Virus record (IMG/VR): IMGVR_UViG_3300017785_004784
Location: 1-24,245 of that record
Direction: 5' to 3' (one strand)
Origin: a virus
Lineage: Duplodnaviria; Caudoviricetes
DNA length: 24,245 bases
How positions within the stretch are numbered: the stretch's first letter is position 1; each line of letters begins with the position of its first letter. Below are positions 5,803-13,559 of the stretch, piece by piece. Position numbers and translations under genes: made by a program. The notes beneath the pieces were generated by a model. The model did no database searches. It was not told the DNA's origin and worked only from the letters and a program-made list of their open reading frames with translations.

Positions 5803-6054
5803 TTACTTTTCGCTTAAAAGATCACAAAGTTTGTCTTTTAACTCTAAGTATTTATTTGCATATTGTGACATTGCAGCGTCATACCCCTCCTGCCATTGAC
5901 GTGGTTGCTCAAGTTGAGCTTGCAAATATCCAGCTAAGTACGACTGCTCTAAGTGATATACAAACGATTCAAGTAATTCTTTATGATATTGAGTTTTACC
6001 AACGTATTTTTTAGCTTTTTCTAATATCTCTCGTTCGTTTTGATTTTTACTCAT
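5803..6054 (-). CDS. Hypothetical phage protein (YLAGY motif)
   Basis: ATG 6054 after GGGGAAT RBS; MSKNQNERE...SYLAGYLQA. Confidence 0.7.
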   Translation of the reverse strand: MSKNQNEREILEKAKKYVGKTQYHKELLESFVYHLEQSYLAGYLQAQLEQPRQWQEGYDAAMSQYANKYLELKDKLCDLLSEK

Positions 6055-6415
6055 ATTCCCCACTTCCGGTTATCTTTACTGTTTGTTTTTTAAGTGAGCG
6101 TCTATAGCCGCTGTACGAGCTTCCTGTGCTTTTTCTCGGTCTAACTCTACCTGTCGTTCAGCTAAAAAAACGTGCACATACAGAGCTTCAAGCGAGTCAA
6201 AACGAGCTTTATGCCAACTAAGCCATATACGCTTAAACATACCTACTAAACCGCTATATGGGGATAACTGGTCCTTTAACTTCTGGCTTTCACAAAACCC
6301 AGCCTTAAACGCTAAACGAACTGCTCTGTAGTCGTCGTTTTTTAGACACCACTGCGATGCAAACTTTTCAGCCTTATCGCTTAACTCACGGTTCATATTC
6401 CCCACTTCCGGTTAT
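6051..6415. repeat. 23-bp perfect direct repeat at 6051-6073 and 6393-6415
   Basis: TCATATTCCCCACTTCCGGTTAT, covering RBS plus start codon on the - strand. Confidence 0.97.
6076..6396 (-). CDS. Hypothetical phage protein (AFKAGF motif)
   Basis: ATG 6396 after GGGGAAT RBS, ATGA overlap with upstream gene; flanked by a 23-bp direct repeat. Confidence 0.7.
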   Translation of the reverse strand: MNRELSDKAEKFASQWCLKNDDYRAVRLAFKAGFCESQKLKDQLSPYSGLVGMFKRIWLSWHKARFDSLEALYVHVFLAERQVELDREKAQEARTAAIDAHLKNKQ

Positions 6416-7035: not shown

Positions 7036-7638
7036 TAATAAAAATAATTTAAAAATACCCTCTTGACAAAGTGTGATGTAACCCCCCCTAATAGGGAAGT
7101 CCTTTTCTTACACCCCCCTTCTAACGCAACTTCACCTACACAAAGAATTACCTCACTTCTCGTTACGTTCTTTCTCTATTCTATTATAAAAAAACATTAT
7201 TAATCTTATAAATATATTTCAGATCTCTACTACGTTCTCTGCTTAGATTCATTCTTTCCTGCCAGTCGTTACTTTCTCCTACCTTACGCCAAGCAAAGCT
7301 ATACCTATACTATACCAACAGCCTCGCTATGCGGGTCGCCGCCTGGGGCGTCGATCCATAACCTCGCTTGGCGGTATATTTTTCAACTCTTCAAATAACT
7401 CAACTTCAGTTCAAATCGTTTCCAAAATCAAAAACTCTATTACTAGATTTGTAGAACCCTGTTTGAGAAAGGGTAGGGAATTTTATATGTGGAGTGAGAT
7501 ATAGCTATAACCGGTACCCTCTTCGTTTTCAAATTCGTTTCAAAAACGAAAACTCTAATAGAGGAATCTCAATAACATACTGGAATCACTAACCTAATTC
7601 TTTACTTAACTAGTTTTCTAATTCTCGTTAGGTAGTAA
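7036..7638. other. Large non-coding region upstream of terS (candidate packaging/terminus or origin region)
   Basis: No ORF >=60 aa; AT-rich, G-poor + strand; imperfect 30-bp repeat 7410-7439/7528-7557; isolated GC-rich hairpin ~7333-7358. Confidence 0.5.
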
Positions 7639-7923
7639 CTATGCGCACTCACTCATTAATTTCATGAAGTCTCTGTCACTCATACCGCTTACCTCACGCA
7701 ACGCTAGTATTTCTGCGAGGTGATACATACGCTTTACCCGCTCACGGTAGCACCAGGCATGGTGTGACATACCGAATAGAGCAGCTGCCCTACGTTGTGT
7801 AAGCCCCATGGTGTAACGTATACGCCTATAGAGGTTATCCTTAGGGTAAGGCATAGCATGACGATAGCTACCTACCCACCACTTATCATTCACAAACTGT
7901 CTATCTATTGCACGTTGCCGCAC
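7639..7923 (-). CDS. XRE-family helix-turn-helix regulator (alternative start ATG 7854)
   Basis: YRRIRYTMGLTQRRAAALFGMSHHAWCYRE matches XRE HTH pattern; divergent from the early operon. Confidence 0.8.
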   Translation of the reverse strand: MRQRAIDRQFVNDKWWVGSYRHAMPYPKDNLYRRIRYTMGLTQRRAAALFGMSHHAWCYRERVKRMYHLAEILALREVSGMSDRDFMKLMSECA

Positions 7924-8108
7924 GTTATATACCTAACCTTATATAATTAGAATCATACATCATACTTAATACTATACGGTAACAGGTAACACTCACACAA
8001 CCATGAGAGGGTTACAGCACTGTCACGACTTGTTTCAGCATGACGAAACTGACCCCACTTTTATTCACAACTTTCTCAAGATTATTTCATCTTATGCCGA
8101 ATCATATA

Positions 8109-8137
8109 TTGACTGTAGTACATCATACATGTATAGT
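8109..8137 (+). promoter_or_regulatory. Sigma70-type early promoter with overlapping inverted repeat
   Basis: TTGACT(8109-8114)-17 bp-TATAGT(8132-8137); ATCATAC 8122-8128 / GTATGAT 8136-8142. Confidence 0.8.
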
Positions 8138-8184
8138 ATGATTATTGAGTGAGTGATTAACGCTCACGATTAAGGGGAAACAAT

Positions 8185-8373
8185 ATGAACATCGAGATAG
8201 ACGACAACATTGCAGAGGGTACGGAATACGAGATCAAGGTTAACGGCCGATCCGTGTTCATTGGCGTGGCTGAGTACGACGGTGATGCCGATGATACTGC
8301 CAACCGTATCGCCTTTTCGTTGTACGGGGAGAGCTTGCACACAAAACTAACTATCACGGTATCAGCACTGTAG
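8185..8373 (+). CDS. Small acidic early protein
   Basis: AGGGGAAAC RBS, 62 aa, first gene after promoter. Confidence 0.75.
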   Translation: MNIEIDDNIAEGTEYEIKVNGRSVFIGVAEYDGDADDTANRIAFSLYGESLHTKLTITVSAL

Positions 8374-8452
8374 TGCCTAGTGTATCCGTAGACTCCCCAT
8401 GAGTAGGGAGTTTATCGGTAACATTGGGTTACCTGTAACGATAGGAGACAAC

Positions 8453-8575
8453 ATGAATAAAGCACGACTACGACAAGACTATACTTTATCGGGATGCTGG
8501 ATTACGGATCTAATTTGCGGGGTGTTCATTGGCTTGGTTTCATTCGTAGGATTAGTTTTGTTTTTTTCATGGTAA
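8453..8575 (+). CDS. 40-aa single-pass membrane peptide
   Basis: AGGAGACAAC-ATG; MNKARLRQDYTLSGCWITDLICGVFIGLVSFVGLVLFFSW. Confidence 0.65.
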   Translation: MNKARLRQDYTLSGCWITDLICGVFIGLVSFVGLVLFFSW

Positions 8576-8639
8576 TACTTGCATCCTATGTGGGATGTGT
8601 GGCATCATACAGTGAGTAGTTAATTTTTAGGGGAAACAT

Positions 8640-8792
8640 ATGACGATCAAAGTAGGTGACAGAGTACTGACGAAAGTAGGGTCCGGCGTAGTAGTAGCGA
8701 AGCGCAAAAAACCACTCGGAAGCTATGTAGTTTATGACGTTTTGATCGATGGCAAGGTGTGGACTTGTAGAAACGTATATTTAGACAAGTAA
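8640..8792 (+). CDS. 50-aa SH3/KOW-like beta-barrel protein
   Basis: AGGGGAAACAT-ATG; MTIKVGDRVLTKVGSGVVVAKRKKPLGSYVVYDVLIDGKVWTCRNVYLDK. Confidence 0.75.
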   Translation: MTIKVGDRVLTKVGSGVVVAKRKKPLGSYVVYDVLIDGKVWTCRNVYLDK

Positions 8793-8855
8793 GGTTTACA
8801 GGGTATCCCACGGGGTACCCGATAGACCGGAATTCACCGGTGATAGGGGAAACAT

Positions 8856-9176
8856 ATGGCAGATCGAATAAATAAAAAGATGGTCGAAACACAATTCATC
8901 AACTTGTGTGACGCAATGGGGAAGTGAGTTGCTACTCATTACAAGGATGTAGGGGCATGGCGGTTGGATTATCAACGATGCTACGGCGGTTTCTGTATTG
9001 TGGAATTGACGGAGCACGGGGAGTCTCTCCCATATGGTCACGGGCGATATAAGGCAAGCGAGATGTTTAATATGCTCCAATTCGCACTACGTTCGATAGC
9101 TATCGACCGTTTGGATGGAGAAACCTTCACCGGCTCATTTTGGCCAACTGATAAGATTACCAACGCTAGAAACTAA
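8856..9176 (+). pseudogene. 106-codon early gene interrupted by one in-frame TGA (8925-8927)
   Basis: AGGGGAAACAT-ATG at 8856; MADRINKKMVETQFINLCDAMGK*VATHYKDVGAWRLDYQRCYGG... continues in frame into track ORF 8964-9176. Confidence 0.75.
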
Positions 9177-9187
9177 TAGGGGACACC

Positions 9188-9508
9188 ATGAAAGCGATAT
9201 TTTTCACACTAGCAATGATTCCAACCGTCGCAGCGGCTCAATTTGACGATGTGGACGCCCACGATGCCCCACAAGGCTCCATCTATGGCAACCCTAACCC
9301 TGTAATCATCCAGCCTGGTGTCCCCGTTCCAAGGGACAGAGGACCATGGGGAACCGGCTATAGCGTTGTCACCGAAACCAGGGAGCGGCCTGATGCTTGG
9401 GGTCGATTTTTAGGCGAGCGTGACGCTACGACGACGACAACCACGCAAAGGGTGGTTCCTAACGATGCCTTGGGTCAACCGATCAAAGGCATGGAACTCC
9501 CCTGGTAG
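9188..9508 (+). CDS. Secreted hypothetical protein
   Basis: Signal peptide MKAIFFTLAMIPTVAAA|Q; AGGGGACAC RBS. Confidence 0.8.
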   Translation: MKAIFFTLAMIPTVAAAQFDDVDAHDAPQGSIYGNPNPVIIQPGVPVPRDRGPWGTGYSVVTETRERPDAWGRFLGERDATTTTTTQRVVPNDALGQPIKGMELPW

Positions 9509-9584
9509 TGAGTGCCCTACCTAGTGATAGGTGGGGTGCTGATTGCCAGTTCGGGATCTGTTTAACGCTAAAATGGGGGAAACC

Positions 9585-9773
9585 ATGAAAAAGTATATTT
9601 GTTGTGCTGTGGTGTTGTTGTGTTCCGGTTGTACTGGAATCGAGCTTGGTGGACGTCTCGGAGTTTACCGAGTCGACGAACGTCAGGAGTCGAGCCGGAC
9701 TAACGTAGAGAATAAAGTCCCGCTTAAATGCTACTTCGTAAGCTGTTCTGAACCGACTAACGACATCAAATAG
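9585..9773 (+). CDS. Small lipoprotein
   Basis: GGGGGAAACC-ATG; MKKYICCAVVLLCSGC lipobox-like signal. Confidence 0.7.
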   Translation: MKKYICCAVVLLCSGCTGIELGGRLGVYRVDERQESSRTNVENKVPLKCYFVSCSEPTNDIK

Positions 9774-9781
9774 GTGACATC

Positions 9782-9949
9782 ATGATAGATCAGATCAAAC
9801 AACTACTCTTTACGCCTACGGGTATCATCGTTTCGTTGCTCCATGTAGCGTTTTTTGTTGGTGCTGTAACCTGCTGGATCGGTATTCAGACTCAAATCCT
9901 TGGGAATGACCCAATCGAGCAGGTGCAACAACTAGGGAAACGACGATGA
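9782..9949 (+). CDS. 55-aa membrane protein
   Basis: AGGTGA RBS; MIDQIKQLLFTPTGIIVSLLHVAFFVGAVTCWIGIQTQILGNDPIEQVQQLGKRR; ATGA overlap with next gene. Confidence 0.75.
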   Translation: MIDQIKQLLFTPTGIIVSLLHVAFFVGAVTCWIGIQTQILGNDPIEQVQQLGKRR

Positions 9950-10449
9950 AGCCGGTTCAGGGTAGCCCTGCCGATCCAGGTTGGATCGGTGGGGTTGTTA
10001 TAATCGCCGTGGCGGGTTGTGCTGTAAGATTACCCGCTGACCTATCCTACCACACCCTTCGCTTCTTTGGACTCAATAGCGGCCATTCCAGAGCCGTTAT
10101 AAGCCAAGAGGTGACTAGAGCCGCTGATGCTTATGGCCTGGATCGGAACGTGTATCACGCCGTGATACAGGTCGAGAGTTCTGGGAACGTAACAGCGGAG
10201 AGCCCCGCAGGTGCTCGGGGATTGTCTCAGGTTATGCCATTTAACGCCAAGCGGTGTGGCTGGCATCCAGATCGGCTATGGGACCCAACTCACAACGTTC
10301 GGTGTGGCGCTCGTATATTGTCGGAGGAGTTAGAACGAACCGGCAACATCCGAGACGCTCTCACCGTGTACAACTGTGGCAAAATTAACTGCAAGGAGGG
10401 GAAAGAATACGCTAGAAAGGTACTTTCACTAGCTAAACAATTAGGCTAG
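9946..10449 (+). CDS. Membrane-anchored lytic transglycosylase (SLT domain)
   Basis: AVIQVESS (catalytic E), GARGLSQVMP, NVRCGARIL, ALTVYNCG motifs; N-terminal hydrophobic segment ending VAGC. Confidence 0.9.
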   Translation: MKPVQGSPADPGWIGGVVIIAVAGCAVRLPADLSYHTLRFFGLNSGHSRAVISQEVTRAADAYGLDRNVYHAVIQVESSGNVTAESPAGARGLSQVMPFNAKRCGWHPDRLWDPTHNVRCGARILSEELERTGNIRDALTVYNCGKINCKEGKEYARKVLSLAKQLG

Positions 10450-10483
10450 TAAGATGTAAGATGTAATTTTATTGGAGACAACC

Positions 10484-10864
10484 ATGAATATATTCAAAAA
10501 ACTATTTAGACCGACACCGCCAACCGAGTTGATTGAACTAAAAGCAACCAAGCATTGTACTCGATGCAAAAAAACGCTCGAAACAGTGCAGTTCAACAAG
10601 TGCTCAAGAGCACCTGACGGGTTGCAGTATTGGTGCCGCAAGTGCCAGGGCGGTTTTGACCGCTCGCGCCTTAAAAAGAAGAAAAAGTTCCTTAGTCGAG
10701 TGCCTAAAACTAACTTCGAGAAAGCTACAATATCTCTGAACATTCCAGCGGTGCCACAAGCTCAGTACAGGCAGCTTGTGGAGCTTGCCAAGGCTCGAAA
10801 ATGGCCGATGGAAAAGCTCTACGCTCAGATGGTAACGGATTTTTTAACACTTCACACAAAATAA
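10484..10864 (+). CDS. Zinc-finger protein with possible C-terminal ribbon-helix-helix
   Basis: KHCTRCK...DGLQYWCRKC; C-terminal ISLNIP...YRQLVELAKARKWPMEKLYAQMVTDFL; GGAGACAACC-ATG. Confidence 0.7.
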   Translation: MNIFKKLFRPTPPTELIELKATKHCTRCKKTLETVQFNKCSRAPDGLQYWCRKCQGGFDRSRLKKKKKFLSRVPKTNFEKATISLNIPAVPQAQYRQLVELAKARKWPMEKLYAQMVTDFLTLHTK

Positions 10865-10874
10865 GGGGAAGTAA

Positions 10875-11726
10875 ATGAACGATAAAGCACTAATAACACA
10901 AAACAACGTGGAGATGCTAAATACACTCCGCAATACCGTTGCACCAGGGTTGACCGATAGCGAGTTTGCACTATTTGCGGAGATCGTTAAGTCAACCGGC
11001 CTAAATCCTGTCACTAAAGAGGTGTGGGCGATTAAAGCAGGTGGAAGGCTTCAGCTCATGACAGGGATCAACGGATTCCTGCGCATCGCTAATTCTCACC
11101 CCATGTTCGATGGTATGGAAGTTGAGTTTGACAAGGACGGGGATCGTATCGTAGCGGCAACCGCTAAGGTTTACCGCAAGGATAGACGCTTCCCAGCCGT
11201 GGCAACCGCTTTTATGGCCGAATATGGCAAGCCTACGCCAATCTGGAAGCAGATGCCGTCGGTTATGCTTGCCAAATGCGCTAAGTCTCTCGCAATCCGT
11301 GAGGCTTTTGTGCAGGAGTTAGGCGGTTTGTACACTCAAGAAGAGATGCCGGCTGAATTTGCTCCCCCACGAGCTACAACCATCCCTAAAGAGGCTTTAA
11401 TCGTCTCTGAAAAGACTGGCAAGGTCATCGGGACCAAGGTTGAGGCCAAGGTTGAGCCTGTCGAGGACATTGTAGACGTAGAAACTGGGGAAATCTTAGT
11501 TGAAGAGGATGATTTACCTGACTCTATGCAGGTTAAGCCAAAAGCTAAGAAATCGAAGGCTACGACGACCTACTACAACCTGGAAACGCTACAGGGTGAC
11601 AAGCTCGTCATCGCTGAAACGTACCTAGTGGCCAACAACGCCAAGCGGCTGACGGAGACACATTGGAAGTCACCTATCCGGCTTGAGAAACTGACTACCT
11701 GCATTGATGAGGCTTTCAATGAGTAA
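10875..11726 (+). CDS. bet: Phage single-strand annealing recombinase (Bet/RecT family)
   Basis: TGLNPVTKEVWAIK, GINGFLRIA, WKQMPSVMLAKCA..LAIREAF..ELGGLYTQEEM. Confidence 0.92.
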   Translation: MNDKALITQNNVEMLNTLRNTVAPGLTDSEFALFAEIVKSTGLNPVTKEVWAIKAGGRLQLMTGINGFLRIANSHPMFDGMEVEFDKDGDRIVAATAKVYRKDRRFPAVATAFMAEYGKPTPIWKQMPSVMLAKCAKSLAIREAFVQELGGLYTQEEMPAEFAPPRATTIPKEALIVSEKTGKVIGTKVEAKVEPVEDIVDVETGEILVEEDDLPDSMQVKPKAKKSKATTTYYNLETLQGDKLVIAETYLVANNAKRLTETHWKSPIRLEKLTTCIDEAFNE

Positions 11727-11922
11727 CGATATACCACCGGCTGACTACTGCCGACCACGCTTTGACAGTCCGAGACCTGGCTATAAGCGGCACACCATCT
11801 TCATTAACGTGGATCTGTTGTGGCGCTGTAAGTCAGTGTGCTCAAAGGATAAAATCAGCTTCACCACGTTGCTGGAGGAGGCTTTGCGTAACCGTATTAA
11901 CTATCACGGGAAACTAAAATGA
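11719..11922 (+). CDS. Ribbon-helix-helix-like DNA-binding protein
   Basis: KRHTIFINVDLLWRCKSVC...ISFTTLLEEALR strand-helix-helix pattern. Confidence 0.65.
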   Translation: MSNDIPPADYCRPRFDSPRPGYKRHTIFINVDLLWRCKSVCSKDKISFTTLLEEALRNRINYHGKLK

Positions 11923-12176
11923 TTAGTCAGATAACACAGGACGCAATCACCTTTAGTGAGTCGTTTCTACCACATCCGAACAGGAACCAAGACCTGACGG
12001 ACTACCAAGCAGCATACGAGGAGGGAGCCAAGCAGGTGCTTCGTTACCTTCAACAGTTTGCTGGTAGGGTAAACGCTATGGTGCCGCCGATTAAGTCCAC
12101 TGGCTTCCAGGATGGACAGGTTGACGGCATCCTATGGACGGTGGAGCACGTCAGCACACTTTTCGGGATTGAATAA
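11919..12176 (+). CDS. Hypothetical protein
   Basis: ATGA overlap, GGGAAAC RBS; last gene of the + operon. Confidence 0.7.
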   Translation: MISQITQDAITFSESFLPHPNRNQDLTDYQAAYEEGAKQVLRYLQQFAGRVNAMVPPIKSTGFQDGQVDGILWTVEHVSTLFGIE

Positions 12177-12210
12177 TAAAAAAGCCGGTCAGGGGGAAAC
12201 TCTGACCGGC
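12176..12210 (-). terminator. Intrinsic terminator
   Basis: GCCGGTCAG-(9 nt)-CTGACCGGC perfect 9-bp stem (12184-12210) followed on the - strand by TTTTTTATT. Confidence 0.85.
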
Positions 12211-12250
12211 CACGACAAAATCAATGGAGACAAACCTATGAACGTGTCTC
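12176..12250 (-). ncRNA. Candidate ~75-nt antisense sRNA complementary to early-gene translation-initiation regions
   Basis: Own promoter and terminator; two hairpins carrying CGUUCAUAGGUUUGUCUCC and GUUUCCCCCU, complementary to repeated RBS motifs of + strand genes. Confidence 0.65.
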
Positions 12251-12254
12251 CCCA

Positions 12255-12283
12255 AACTTACAGCATTATCCAAGCAGCGTCAA
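12255..12283 (-). promoter_or_regulatory. Sigma70-type promoter for candidate sRNA
   Basis: TTGACG (12283-12278)-17 bp-TAAGTT (12260-12255). Confidence 0.65.
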
Positions 12284-12556
12284 AGTCCAATTCTCACTCG
12301 GCGCACACCTTTTAGGCTCGCTTTTAAGCGATGAATTAGCCACCAGTTGTCCGTAGTCGCAGAAGAAACGTTTATTGCGTCTGAGGCCATTCTCGCCAGC
12401 CTCGTAGTCCACTAGGAAAACATTCCCGTCAGCATCCACAGCCTTAAACGTGCCGGTGCGGTTGCCCTCATGCGTTGAAATAGGAGCATACTCCGGCAAA
12501 ATGCTGTAAAGGCGTTGGTGCAGGTCAGTGATAATAGGTTTATGCTTGTTTAACAT
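12266..12556 (-). CDS. Hypothetical protein
   Basis: 96 aa, AAGGAG RBS, overlaps upstream HTH gene. Confidence 0.7.
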   Translation of the reverse strand: MLNKHKPIITDLHQRLYSILPEYAPISTHEGNRTGTFKAVDADGNVFLVDYEAGENGLRRNKRFFCDYGQLVANSSLKSEPKRCAPSENWTLTLLG

Positions 12557-12728
12557 GACGCTCCTTCAACCAGGCTTCAATCTCAGCAATTTTTACCCGA
12601 CGGTGGGTTTTAAGTTTCAGATGTGGACACCCAGCTTTTAACCAACTGCGGATCGTCATATCAGAAACGCTAAAATAGGCCTTTGCTGCCGTTATCGTGA
12701 CGTAATTGTTTTTTTCTTCATCGGTCAT
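12540..12728 (-). CDS. Excisionase-like (MerR-superfamily) winged-helix protein
   Basis: YVTITAAKAYFSVSDMTIRSWLKAGCP...RRVKIAEIEAWL. Confidence 0.85.
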   Translation of the reverse strand: MTDEEKNNYVTITAAKAYFSVSDMTIRSWLKAGCPHLKLKTHRRVKIAEIEAWLKERHVKQA

Positions 12729-12762
12729 AAATTACCTTGCGGTTTCTGTAAGGTTCTTGTAG

Positions 12763-12791
12763 ATACTAAGTGCTTTTGTAGTCTTTATCAA
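12763..12791 (-). promoter_or_regulatory. Sigma70-type promoter in divergent intergenic region
   Basis: TTGATA (12791-12786)-17 bp-TAGTAT (12768-12763). Confidence 0.55.
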
Positions 12792-12800
12792 GGGGGATTT

Positions 12801-13121
12801 ATGGCTGGACCGACAAAATCGTGGCGAAACAAGGGAGTTGATATAGCGGCTTGGACTAATGAGAAGGGTCAAGTGTCGTTTACACTTCGTAAGCAGTATT
12901 TGAACAAGCAAACTCAAACTTGGACGGATACTAAATACCTATATCAAGATGACCTTAGAAACTTAATTGACCTCCTTCAACAGGCAGTCGCCTGGAATAG
13001 TGGCAACGCCGCTGACCGTGAGGAACACAAATGGGCTGCTGTAGAATCTGGCTCTCTCAGCGCAGTAGTCAAAGACACTGTGAAAGCAGTTAAGTTTGAA
13101 GATGACGATATACCTTTTTAA
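12801..13121 (+). CDS. Probable single-stranded DNA-binding protein
   Basis: Beta-rich N-terminus with aromatic residues and SSB-type acidic tip FEDDDIPF. Confidence 0.7.
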   Translation: MAGPTKSWRNKGVDIAAWTNEKGQVSFTLRKQYLNKQTQTWTDTKYLYQDDLRNLIDLLQQAVAWNSGNAADREEHKWAAVESGSLSAVVKDTVKAVKFEDDDIPF

Positions 13122-13129
13122 AGGACTTT

Positions 13130-13390
13130 ATGAAACTTTATAGTCTTTTTAGGGTAATAGACGGCAAGTGGGAGATAGTTTTGCACATACTGCGAAATGA
13201 TGACTGGAAGTTTCAGTATGAACCACGACCTGAACTTAGAGCGTTAATTGATGAACACTACGATGTAACTCCAGATGTTATGGCCAAGTTGTTGTTGGAT
13301 AACGTTTTACATTGCGAAGTTGTAGAGATTCATCACATGTCAGGTCAGGGTATTGTAGTGAGGCGATGCGATGATCAAGCCAGTGAGTGA
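13130..13390 (+). CDS. Hypothetical protein
   Basis: AAGGA RBS, operon spacing. Confidence 0.7.
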   Translation: MKLYSLFRVIDGKWEIVLHILRNDDWKFQYEPRPELRALIDEHYDVTPDVMAKLLLDNVLHCEVVEIHHMSGQGIVVRRCDDQASE

Positions 13391-13559
13391 GCTATTTAAG
13401 GATCAGTTGTGGCGTAAGTTGGAAGCACAGCACAAGGCGTCTGTAGAGCGAGGTAAGATAAACCCAGCCACGATTAGTCAGGACGCCGCCATCGTACGGT
13501 GGAGCAGTGAGGTATTAACTCAGGAACGCCTGAGAAAGGAGACAAAAAATGAACGCTGA
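13371..13559 (+). CDS. Hypothetical protein
   Basis: GAGG RBS, overlaps both neighbours. Confidence 0.6.
   Translation: MIKPVSELFKDQLWRKLEAQHKASVERGKINPATISQDAAIVRWSSEVLTQERLRKETKNER

Follow-up and report, generated by a model that had tools for sequence, protein, structure and literature searches.

Why do many early genes of a single phage begin with the same few bases, and why does the complement of those bases recur in a short minus-strand cassette that looks like a small RNA gene? Both questions are raised by a 24,245-nt phage contig, analysed here over its whole length and referred to as the window. Its portal and terminase genes lie on the minus strand, as do its virion genes, and its plus strand carries a cluster of small genes together with an SLT transglycosylase and a Bet/RecT recombinase. 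The label 'early' for this cluster, which begins at 8185, is presumptive and rests on gene content and on a promoter-like site at its head, TTGACT-17-TATAGT (8109–8137, +), listed by a consensus scan. A first-pass annotation had proposed that one trans-acting RNA shuts off translation of about ten of these genes by recognizing standardized start tags. Comparison of positions 8000–13200 with cultured phages by blastn gave no match, the nearest cultured phages by protein reach 41% in the terminase (Pam5) and 27% in the portal, and ten recombinase relatives in the genome collection indicated no host. Positions 7200–8150 form an AT-rich divergent region with outward-facing promoter-like sites, possibly a control region or a genome end.

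The predicted RNA cassette in the window

On the minus strand, a predicted sigma-70-type promoter, TTGACG-17-TAAGTT (12255–12283), overlaps the end of an ORF of 96 aa. Its −35 element TTGACG occupies 12283–12278 and is followed, after a spacer of 17 nt, by the −10 element TAAGTT at 12260–12255; in close relatives the −35 is kept, the spacer varies, and the −10 reads TAAATT or TACAAT. With the 5' end set 7 nt past the −10, at 12248, the predicted RNA is about 71 nt long (12178–12248, −), the start being accurate to within a few nucleotides. It ends in an intrinsic terminator hairpin (12178–12211, −), supported by folding and by comparison with relatives, in which a stem pairing 12184–12192 with 12202–12210 closes a 9-nt loop and is followed by six U residues (12183–12178). 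The cassette was thus located where the first-pass annotation had drawn it, with an RNA of about 71 rather than 75 nt.

Two candidate seeds are carried by this RNA. Seed 1, GUUUCCCC, lies in the terminator loop (12193–12200, −) and has an opening cost of 0.7 kcal/mol, while seed 2, UUUGUCUCCA, is found with GUUCAU, an anti-start-codon stretch, in the 5' part (12225–12243, −), which folds weakly and has an opening cost of about 3.4 kcal/mol. Folding of the window RNA gave a stable terminator with an open 9-nt loop and a 5' fold that varied with the start chosen; the 7-bp 5' hairpin drawn earlier did not form with the start at 12248. Among six sequences the terminator stem showed two-sided changes at 6 of 12 pairs with the loop unchanged. 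A strict-rule consensus scan listed neither the promoter nor the terminator of the RNA, and support for both is therefore comparative. Rfam gave no match at E ≤ 1 in the window, and in the genomes of four relatives one tRNA was all that reached the gathering score; a tRNA gene lies at L357:5530–5602 in relative G003 (loci of relatives are designated by L and a number).

Upstream of the RNA, two minus-strand ORFs (12266–12728), one encoding a 62-aa HTH_17/excisionase-like protein and the other the 96-aa protein of no named family, would read into the sRNA terminator, and the consensus scan listed a promoter-like site for them at 12791–12763. A 106-aa gene (12801–13121, +), which serves as the downstream synteny marker, is tentatively called SSB-like from its acidic C-terminal tail, and its protein matched neither Pfam nor PHROG families; it is not a predicted target of the RNA (−1.5 kcal/mol). 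Judged by its sequence patterns, the cassette has the general features of a trans-encoded sRNA gene, namely a length within 50–550 nt, its own promoter and terminator, and no conserved ORF. We regard it as a real, family-wide predicted sRNA gene with a putative function, and its transcription is read from the pattern of promoter and terminator. One sequencing run, probably of DNA, gave no coverage at the element, a result without bearing on expression.

Start tags and predicted pairing

The 8-mer GGGGAAAC occurs five times on the plus strand of the window (8174, 8630, 8846, 9576 and 12193) and not at all on the minus strand, against 0.24 copies per strand expected from base composition. Four of these lie ahead of ATGs; the remaining one forms the loop of the terminator. 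Similarly, GGAGACAA occurs four times on the plus strand (8444, 10474, 12226 and 13538) and is absent from the minus strand, with 0.28 copies per strand expected from base composition; three copies precede ATGs, and the one at 12226 lies inside the cassette. Taken together, the nine copies of both seed 8-mers are all on the plus strand, seven directly before start codons and two in the cassette.

Pairing was scored as single helices of at least 7 bp with opening costs included, at window starts picked by eye, two or three of which may be misplaced. Mean pairing was −5.4 kcal/mol for early starts, −2.7 kcal/mol for downstream plus-strand starts and −0.9 kcal/mol for minus-strand starts (early versus minus strand, Mann–Whitney p = 3e-4), and none of 300 dinucleotide-shuffled RNAs equalled the real one. 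About −5 kcal/mol or better was reached by 8 of 13 early candidates, by one of eight downstream plus-strand starts (13549) and by none of 21 minus-strand starts.

The strongest seed-1 targets, all on the plus strand, precede the ATGs at 8185 (8174–8181, −9.9 kcal/mol), 8856 (8846–8853, −9.9 kcal/mol, in an ORF that ends after 23 aa here) and 8640 (8630–8637, −9.3 kcal/mol), followed by those at 9585 (9576–9583, −7.2 kcal/mol) and 11919 (11908–11915, −7.2 kcal/mol). A 7-nt seed-1 target precedes the ATG at 9946 of the SLT transglycosylase (Pfam PF01464; 9935–9941, −6.4 kcal/mol), and a wobble-containing one that at 10875 of the Bet/RecT recombinase (10865–10872, −5.0 kcal/mol). Seed-2 targets, likewise on the plus strand, precede the ATGs at 10484 (10473–10488, −6.1 kcal/mol), at 13549, downstream of the RNA gene (13538–13555, −8.0 kcal/mol), and at 8453 (8444–8457), where a single helix gives −4.0 kcal/mol and an extended duplex covers the AUG. 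Of the near matches to seed 1 named in the first-pass annotation, those at 9946, 10875 and 11919 held up, while the early start at 9188 pairs at only −2.0 kcal/mol. The starts at 9782, 11719 and 8569 have no seed match, so that the proposed regulon of about ten genes is retained as some nine or ten plausible targets and does not take in every early gene.

Two further features of these starts were noted. The ORF at 8856–8927, which has a perfect seed-1 start, stops after 23 codons, its ortholog in L049 has 106 aa, and its frame resumes as 8964–9176, which may reflect a pseudogene, an assembly error or read-through. Two small minus-strand genes (starts 6054–6063 and 6396–6405) share a start sequence with a weak seed-1 match of −2.5 and −0.6 kcal/mol, respectively.

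Seeds, tags and cassettes across the phage family

Searches with the recombinase, terminase and SSB-like genes yielded 341 loci, many of them redundant, and 210 sequences with an SSB-like match. Of 181 redundant loci in which the recombinase–SSB interval is complete, 164 contain a terminator-type cassette, defined by a hairpin and a minus-strand U run; L262, which is identical to the window, is left out of these counts. Nine of the 17 loci without a cassette belong to one clade whose genes abut at the recombinase–SSB site, and seven loci resembling class D (see below) lack the minus-strand U run. The 89 distinct cassettes, a set from which four hairpins judged not to be cassettes were omitted (the third of L008, L025, the second of L186, and L261), have predicted lengths of 52–103 nt, mostly 60–73 nt. 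Scored with approximate weight tables and 100 shuffles each, their promoters were better on the RNA strand than on the opposite strand in 82 and beat 95% of shuffles in 44. Relatives grouped with the window share its −35 region and seed-1 loop but vary in spacer and stem.

Several cassettes depart from this arrangement. In five D-like loci (L179, L182, L183, L217 and L315), the cassette, which lies about 130–170 nt before the SSB-like core, still shows the promoter pattern and a hairpin, but its minus-strand U run is gone and a T run is present on the plus side, as if the terminator had been reversed. At L008:4715–4790 (also in L007, L009, L010 and L130) there is a second, tandem promoter–hairpin–terminator cassette. 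Its loop matches none of the early starts, and its target is possibly in the host; similar loop words are present in the 5' hairpins of L006, L203 and L204. A target search with the first tandem cassette of class B gave no start-associated match. A minus-strand gene of about 200 aa lies inside the early region at L153:803–1490, with similar genes in L013, L014, L015, L018, L137 and L182; it is preceded by a hairpin with a plus-strand T run and could be a replication gene under antisense control of its own.

Exposed RNA seeds and early-start tags differ between lineages, and they differ together. In class A, which includes the window, the exposed RNA sequence GUUUCCCC corresponds to the tag GGGGAAAC; the corresponding pairs are CCUUAGUUG and CAACUAAGG in class B, UUAGUCACCU and AGGUGACUAA in class C, UCAUAUAUUCC and GGAAUAUAUGA in class D, CUCCUAGUU and AACUAGGAG in class E, UGUCUCCA and UGGAGACA in class F, AUUACCCUC and GAGGGUAAU in class G, UUGCUAGUCA and UGACUAGCAG in class H, and GGUCUCCAAU and AUUGGAGACC in class J. 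A cross-matrix of 61 RNAs, in 11 seed classes, against the early-start sets of 58 phages with at least seven called starts was computed, with the classes drawn after the start lists had been seen, starts called by our own simple gene caller, and some RNA 5' ends trimmed by rule. The phages' own class scored best in 7 of 11 classes in the raw matrix and in 9 of 11 after double-centring (removal of row and column means), and the diagonal was matched by none of 200,000 permutations of the class labels, in agreement with the covariation that the first-pass annotation called for. Classes I and K, single-member classes with U/C-rich RNAs that pair broadly, failed this comparison, and per phage the own RNA ranked first in only 33 of 58.

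A recombinase tree of 52 rows, in which the L258 branch is very long and unreliable, requires 10 changes for the 11 classes, which is the minimum; the classes are thus roughly clades, and the class is a fair unit for the comparison. Early starts were favoured over minus-strand starts by the own RNA in 45 of 47 phages, extending to relatives the better pairing of early genes that had been anticipated for the window. In four near-complete genomes, −5 kcal/mol was reached by 19 of 45 early, one of 25 downstream and one of 143 minus-strand starts. A generic anti-Shine–Dalgarno effect was ruled out by the cross-matrix and by late starts without a match.

Individual genes also exchange tags. The recombinase start is of the seed-1 type in the window, L003 and L006, and of the seed-2 type in L049, L002 and L087. 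The L006 RNA has lost seed 2 and contains the seed-1 sequence twice; none of the starts listed for it is of the seed-2 type, and the gene orthologous to that at 13549 begins with a seed-1 tag.

The match is nonetheless imperfect. Seeds are 7–13 nt long with modest energies, and roughly half of the early starts that were called are untagged. In class B, CCCC in the RNA faces GGAG in several targets, which gives a C–A clash in the Shine–Dalgarno core. Differences between cassette and target were G–U compatible in 56 cases and incompatible in 61, many of them outside the seed (41 versus 58 without classes D and K); an excess of the former, expected if pairing were under selection, was not seen. 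Seeds were more open than the rest of the RNA in 49 of 49 cases, a largely trivial result, since the rest is terminator stem, which we do not count as support. What is directly observed is that the seeds are complementary to start regions, that this complementarity is confined to early starts, that the cassette occurs throughout the family, and that seed and tag change jointly between lineages. Short exposed seeds that match and covary with several distant mRNAs are what characterizes trans-encoded sRNAs in general. We consider the comparative evidence for seed–target co-evolution and trans action to be strong.

The same matches could arise if the RNA were a cis-acting antisense RNA or a convergent terminator of the sar/OOP type that controls only the overlapping plus-strand transcript or the SSB-like gene, the remaining matches being a by-product of duplicated start sequence. 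Such a role would suit the position of the RNA gene inside the plus-strand early region, the use of the window cassette as the natural terminator of two minus-strand ORFs, and the null wobble result. It is also favoured by relatives: in 20 of 58 (all 12 of class D, class K and 7 of class E) the cassette overlaps the ATG of a plus-strand ORF of 122–140 aa, and part of the match there is therefore trivial. In L016 the plus-strand ORF opened at the cassette ATG ends at the SSB-like stop, and with an overlap of this type the RNA would be a sar-like cis-antisense RNA. The frame of 122–140 aa that runs from the cassette ATG through to the SSB-like stop in L134, L016, L187, L188 and their kin suggests an N-terminally extended SSB-like protein with two possible starts.

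Cis action is hard to reconcile with seed 1, whose place in the terminator loop has no start codon following it and whose sequence stays constant as the stem varies, and with the many relatives that have promoter and terminator but no minus-strand ORF to end. Covariation also persisted when the 21 phages with a plus-strand ORF of at least 60 aa in the cassette, the 20 above and L090, were removed (37 left; 8 of 9 classes, matched by 1 of 200,000 permutations). Opposite the window cassette there is only a non-conserved plus-strand ORF of 25 aa. Translation of this ORF, which would have made the motif an ordinary ribosome-binding site, was ruled out as an explanation, the frame being 7 aa in L004 and L087 and 0–35 aa in most classes, often with no ATG in relatives.

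Inverted and relocated copies bear most directly on the question. An unbiased hairpin search identified them at L015:6843–6896, L137:5692–5745 and L153:1535–1590, in three of nine loci of a clade without the recombinase–SSB copy, the remaining loci being short or the same contig. These cassettes are on the strand of the early genes, immediately ahead of a promoter-like early site, and their seed still matches the clade's own one-base tag variant, GGATATATG (3, 7 and 3 copies in L015, L137 and L153, respectively), where class D loci mostly carry GAATATATG. Of 61 foreign RNAs, one and two, from the sister class D, slightly outscored the relocated RNAs on their own starts (L137 was unscored). Since relocated copies can be neither early starts nor cis-antisense to early starts, they provide the best argument for trans action. 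A single target opposite the RNA, the mark of cis-antisense control, is thus absent in the window, present as the long plus-strand ORF in 20 of 58 relatives, and impossible for the relocated copies. We judge a purely cis-acting role to be unlikely.

A further possibility is that a protein recognizes the tags, be it a phage factor like RegB or RegA or a host factor like CsrA, or that they are repeats in the DNA; the cassette would then be a decoy on the sense strand or the remnant of a gene start. T4 RegB inactivates early mRNAs at GGAG (PMC1702504), both window seeds contain GGA, and G in the cassette versus A in the targets is the commonest difference (47 of 117). Tags, however, are wholly different between lineages, several of them without GGA, which also ruled out a CsrA-type GGA sponge. 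The promoter and U-tract indicate the antisense strand, which folds better in 42 of 55 RNAs; the relocated clade has the complement, not a sense copy, on the early strand; and a scan of 36 window proteins named none of this kind. A protein or DNA-repeat explanation is therefore very improbable in our estimate.

Proposed function and comparison with known systems

We propose that the sRNA is a trans-acting, multi-target translational repressor of the phage's own early genes that serves delayed shut-off in the lytic cycle, a reading to which we assign a probability of roughly two in three. A host-type promoter belonging to the RNA itself would drive its transcription, and the HTH/96-aa message might also contain it as its 3' end. 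The RNA would then act in trans through seed 1, in the terminator loop, or through seed 2, in the 5' part, whose duplex can reach across the AUG. Pairing would cover the Shine–Dalgarno site and start codon, block 30S entry and jointly lower translation of the early set. Repression is the expected outcome because RNAs covering a ribosome-binding site are established to repress; activation was judged unlikely, as the seeds cover the Shine–Dalgarno bases themselves. The role we infer is that of a delay timer, in which host polymerase would make the RNA from the onset of infection and its accumulation would silence the early genes later in the lytic cycle. A tyrosine integrase was found in none of five near-complete relatives (33–37 kb), and a lytic timer thus fits better than prophage maintenance. 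Either by origin or as a second function, the RNA is probably cis-antisense to the start of the SSB-like gene, which it overlaps in some lineages.

Trans action on the same tags might instead have exclusion or immunity as its main job, with the RNA in an infected or carrier cell silencing incoming phages that bear the same tags, and seed switching creating heteroimmune groups. Seeds and tags have switched together about ten times, as expected of competing specificity determinants, and P4 CI RNA and P1 C4 RNA serve lysogeny control (PMC4825925, PMC8201110). The lack of an integrase in the near-complete relatives speaks against such a role, as does the window's only candidate repressor, a weak HTH ORF (7639–7923, −) with a Pfam E-value of 0.013, below the cut-off. 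We hold exclusion as the main job to be quite unlikely.

If delayed shut-off is correct, one RNA governing its own early set via standard tags would be a compact alternative to protein shut-off in the style of T4 RegB. It would also offer a directly testable answer to why many phages repeat an early-gene start sequence, a point left open for the start-associated sequence (SAS) repeats in 2011 (PMC3203893). The phage regulatory RNAs described in sections 1–4 of PMC12197685 target either a single overlapping gene of the phage or genes of the host. A wider and doubtful extension would be an RNA-only address code, in which lineage-private tags of 7–13 nt on early starts are read by one mobile, reprogrammable sRNA gene, giving protein-free early shut-off and orthogonal exclusion groups, and in which start-associated repeats elsewhere, such as SAS, are tags of such RNAs. 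About nine naturally occurring seed/tag pairs, partly orthogonal to one another, are available in the family for a specificity matrix and as parts for synthetic translational control.

C4 antisense RNA is matured from a precursor by RNase P and blocks a ribosome-binding site through short loop seeds, and P1/P7 heteroimmunity acts through c4. Like the RNA described here, P1/P7 C4 is a phage-encoded, structured antisense RNA that regulates phage genes (PMC8201110). C4 controls ant in the immI region, whereas about ten separate early starts are matched here, and unlike C4 the window RNA has its own predicted promoter and terminator on the strand opposite its targets. The C4 covariance model (RF01695, the Rfam accession given in PMC2864571) matched neither the window nor four relatives, so that the likeness to C4 drawn in the first-pass annotation stands as a functional one. 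An immI-type region with icd and ant was not found; the neighbours are the recombinase, the HTH_17 protein and unnamed genes, and no antirepressor was named among the 36 proteins scanned.

P22 sar and lambda OOP and aQ share with this RNA a small size, an own promoter and an antisense position within a phage transcription unit, and sar blocks initiation of ant translation (PMC12197685). Class D and K relatives, and some of class E, overlap the start of a long plus-strand ORF in the manner of sar. However, sar, OOP and aQ have one overlapping target each, whereas many non-overlapping starts are matched here, and the matches survive inversion and relocation of the gene. P4 CI RNA likewise pairs at more than one site (seqA and seqC) and restrains lytic genes (PMC4825925), but it is processed from the transcript that it controls and causes premature termination. 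The window RNA is a predicted primary transcript whose sites are translation starts, and its own predicted promoter and terminator, opposite the targets, set it apart from same-strand processing and seqA/seqC termination.

Shared tags are known from two further systems. Cluster K mycobacteriophage SAS are repeated start tags with conserved bases beyond those complementary to 16S rRNA, for which the authors did not decide between an RNA and a protein as the binding partner (PMC3203893). SAS belong to a different phage group and sequence, their 13-bp consensus differing by eye from the tags here, and no matching RNA is named in the accessible text of that paper (PMC3203893). T4 RegB also shuts down early phage mRNAs via a shared tag, GGAG (PMC1702504), but is a protein nuclease with one fixed motif, whereas here the reader would be an RNA and the motif differs by lineage. 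Among the phage sRNAs covered by sections 1–4 of one review (VpdS, PreS, 24B_1, sar, OOP, aQ, DicF, STnc6030 and sas), none is described as repressing many early starts of its own phage (PMC12197685). No paper found in literature searches describes such a system in its title or the opening of its abstract, with subscription papers mostly outside the scope. Relevant to novelty may be a table in PMC12197685, which has 38 uncharacterised phage sRNAs, and Additional File 1 of PMC2864571. Judged from its sequence, the RNA departs from C4, CI and sar in their defining properties and would work like the trans-encoded anti-RBS sRNAs.
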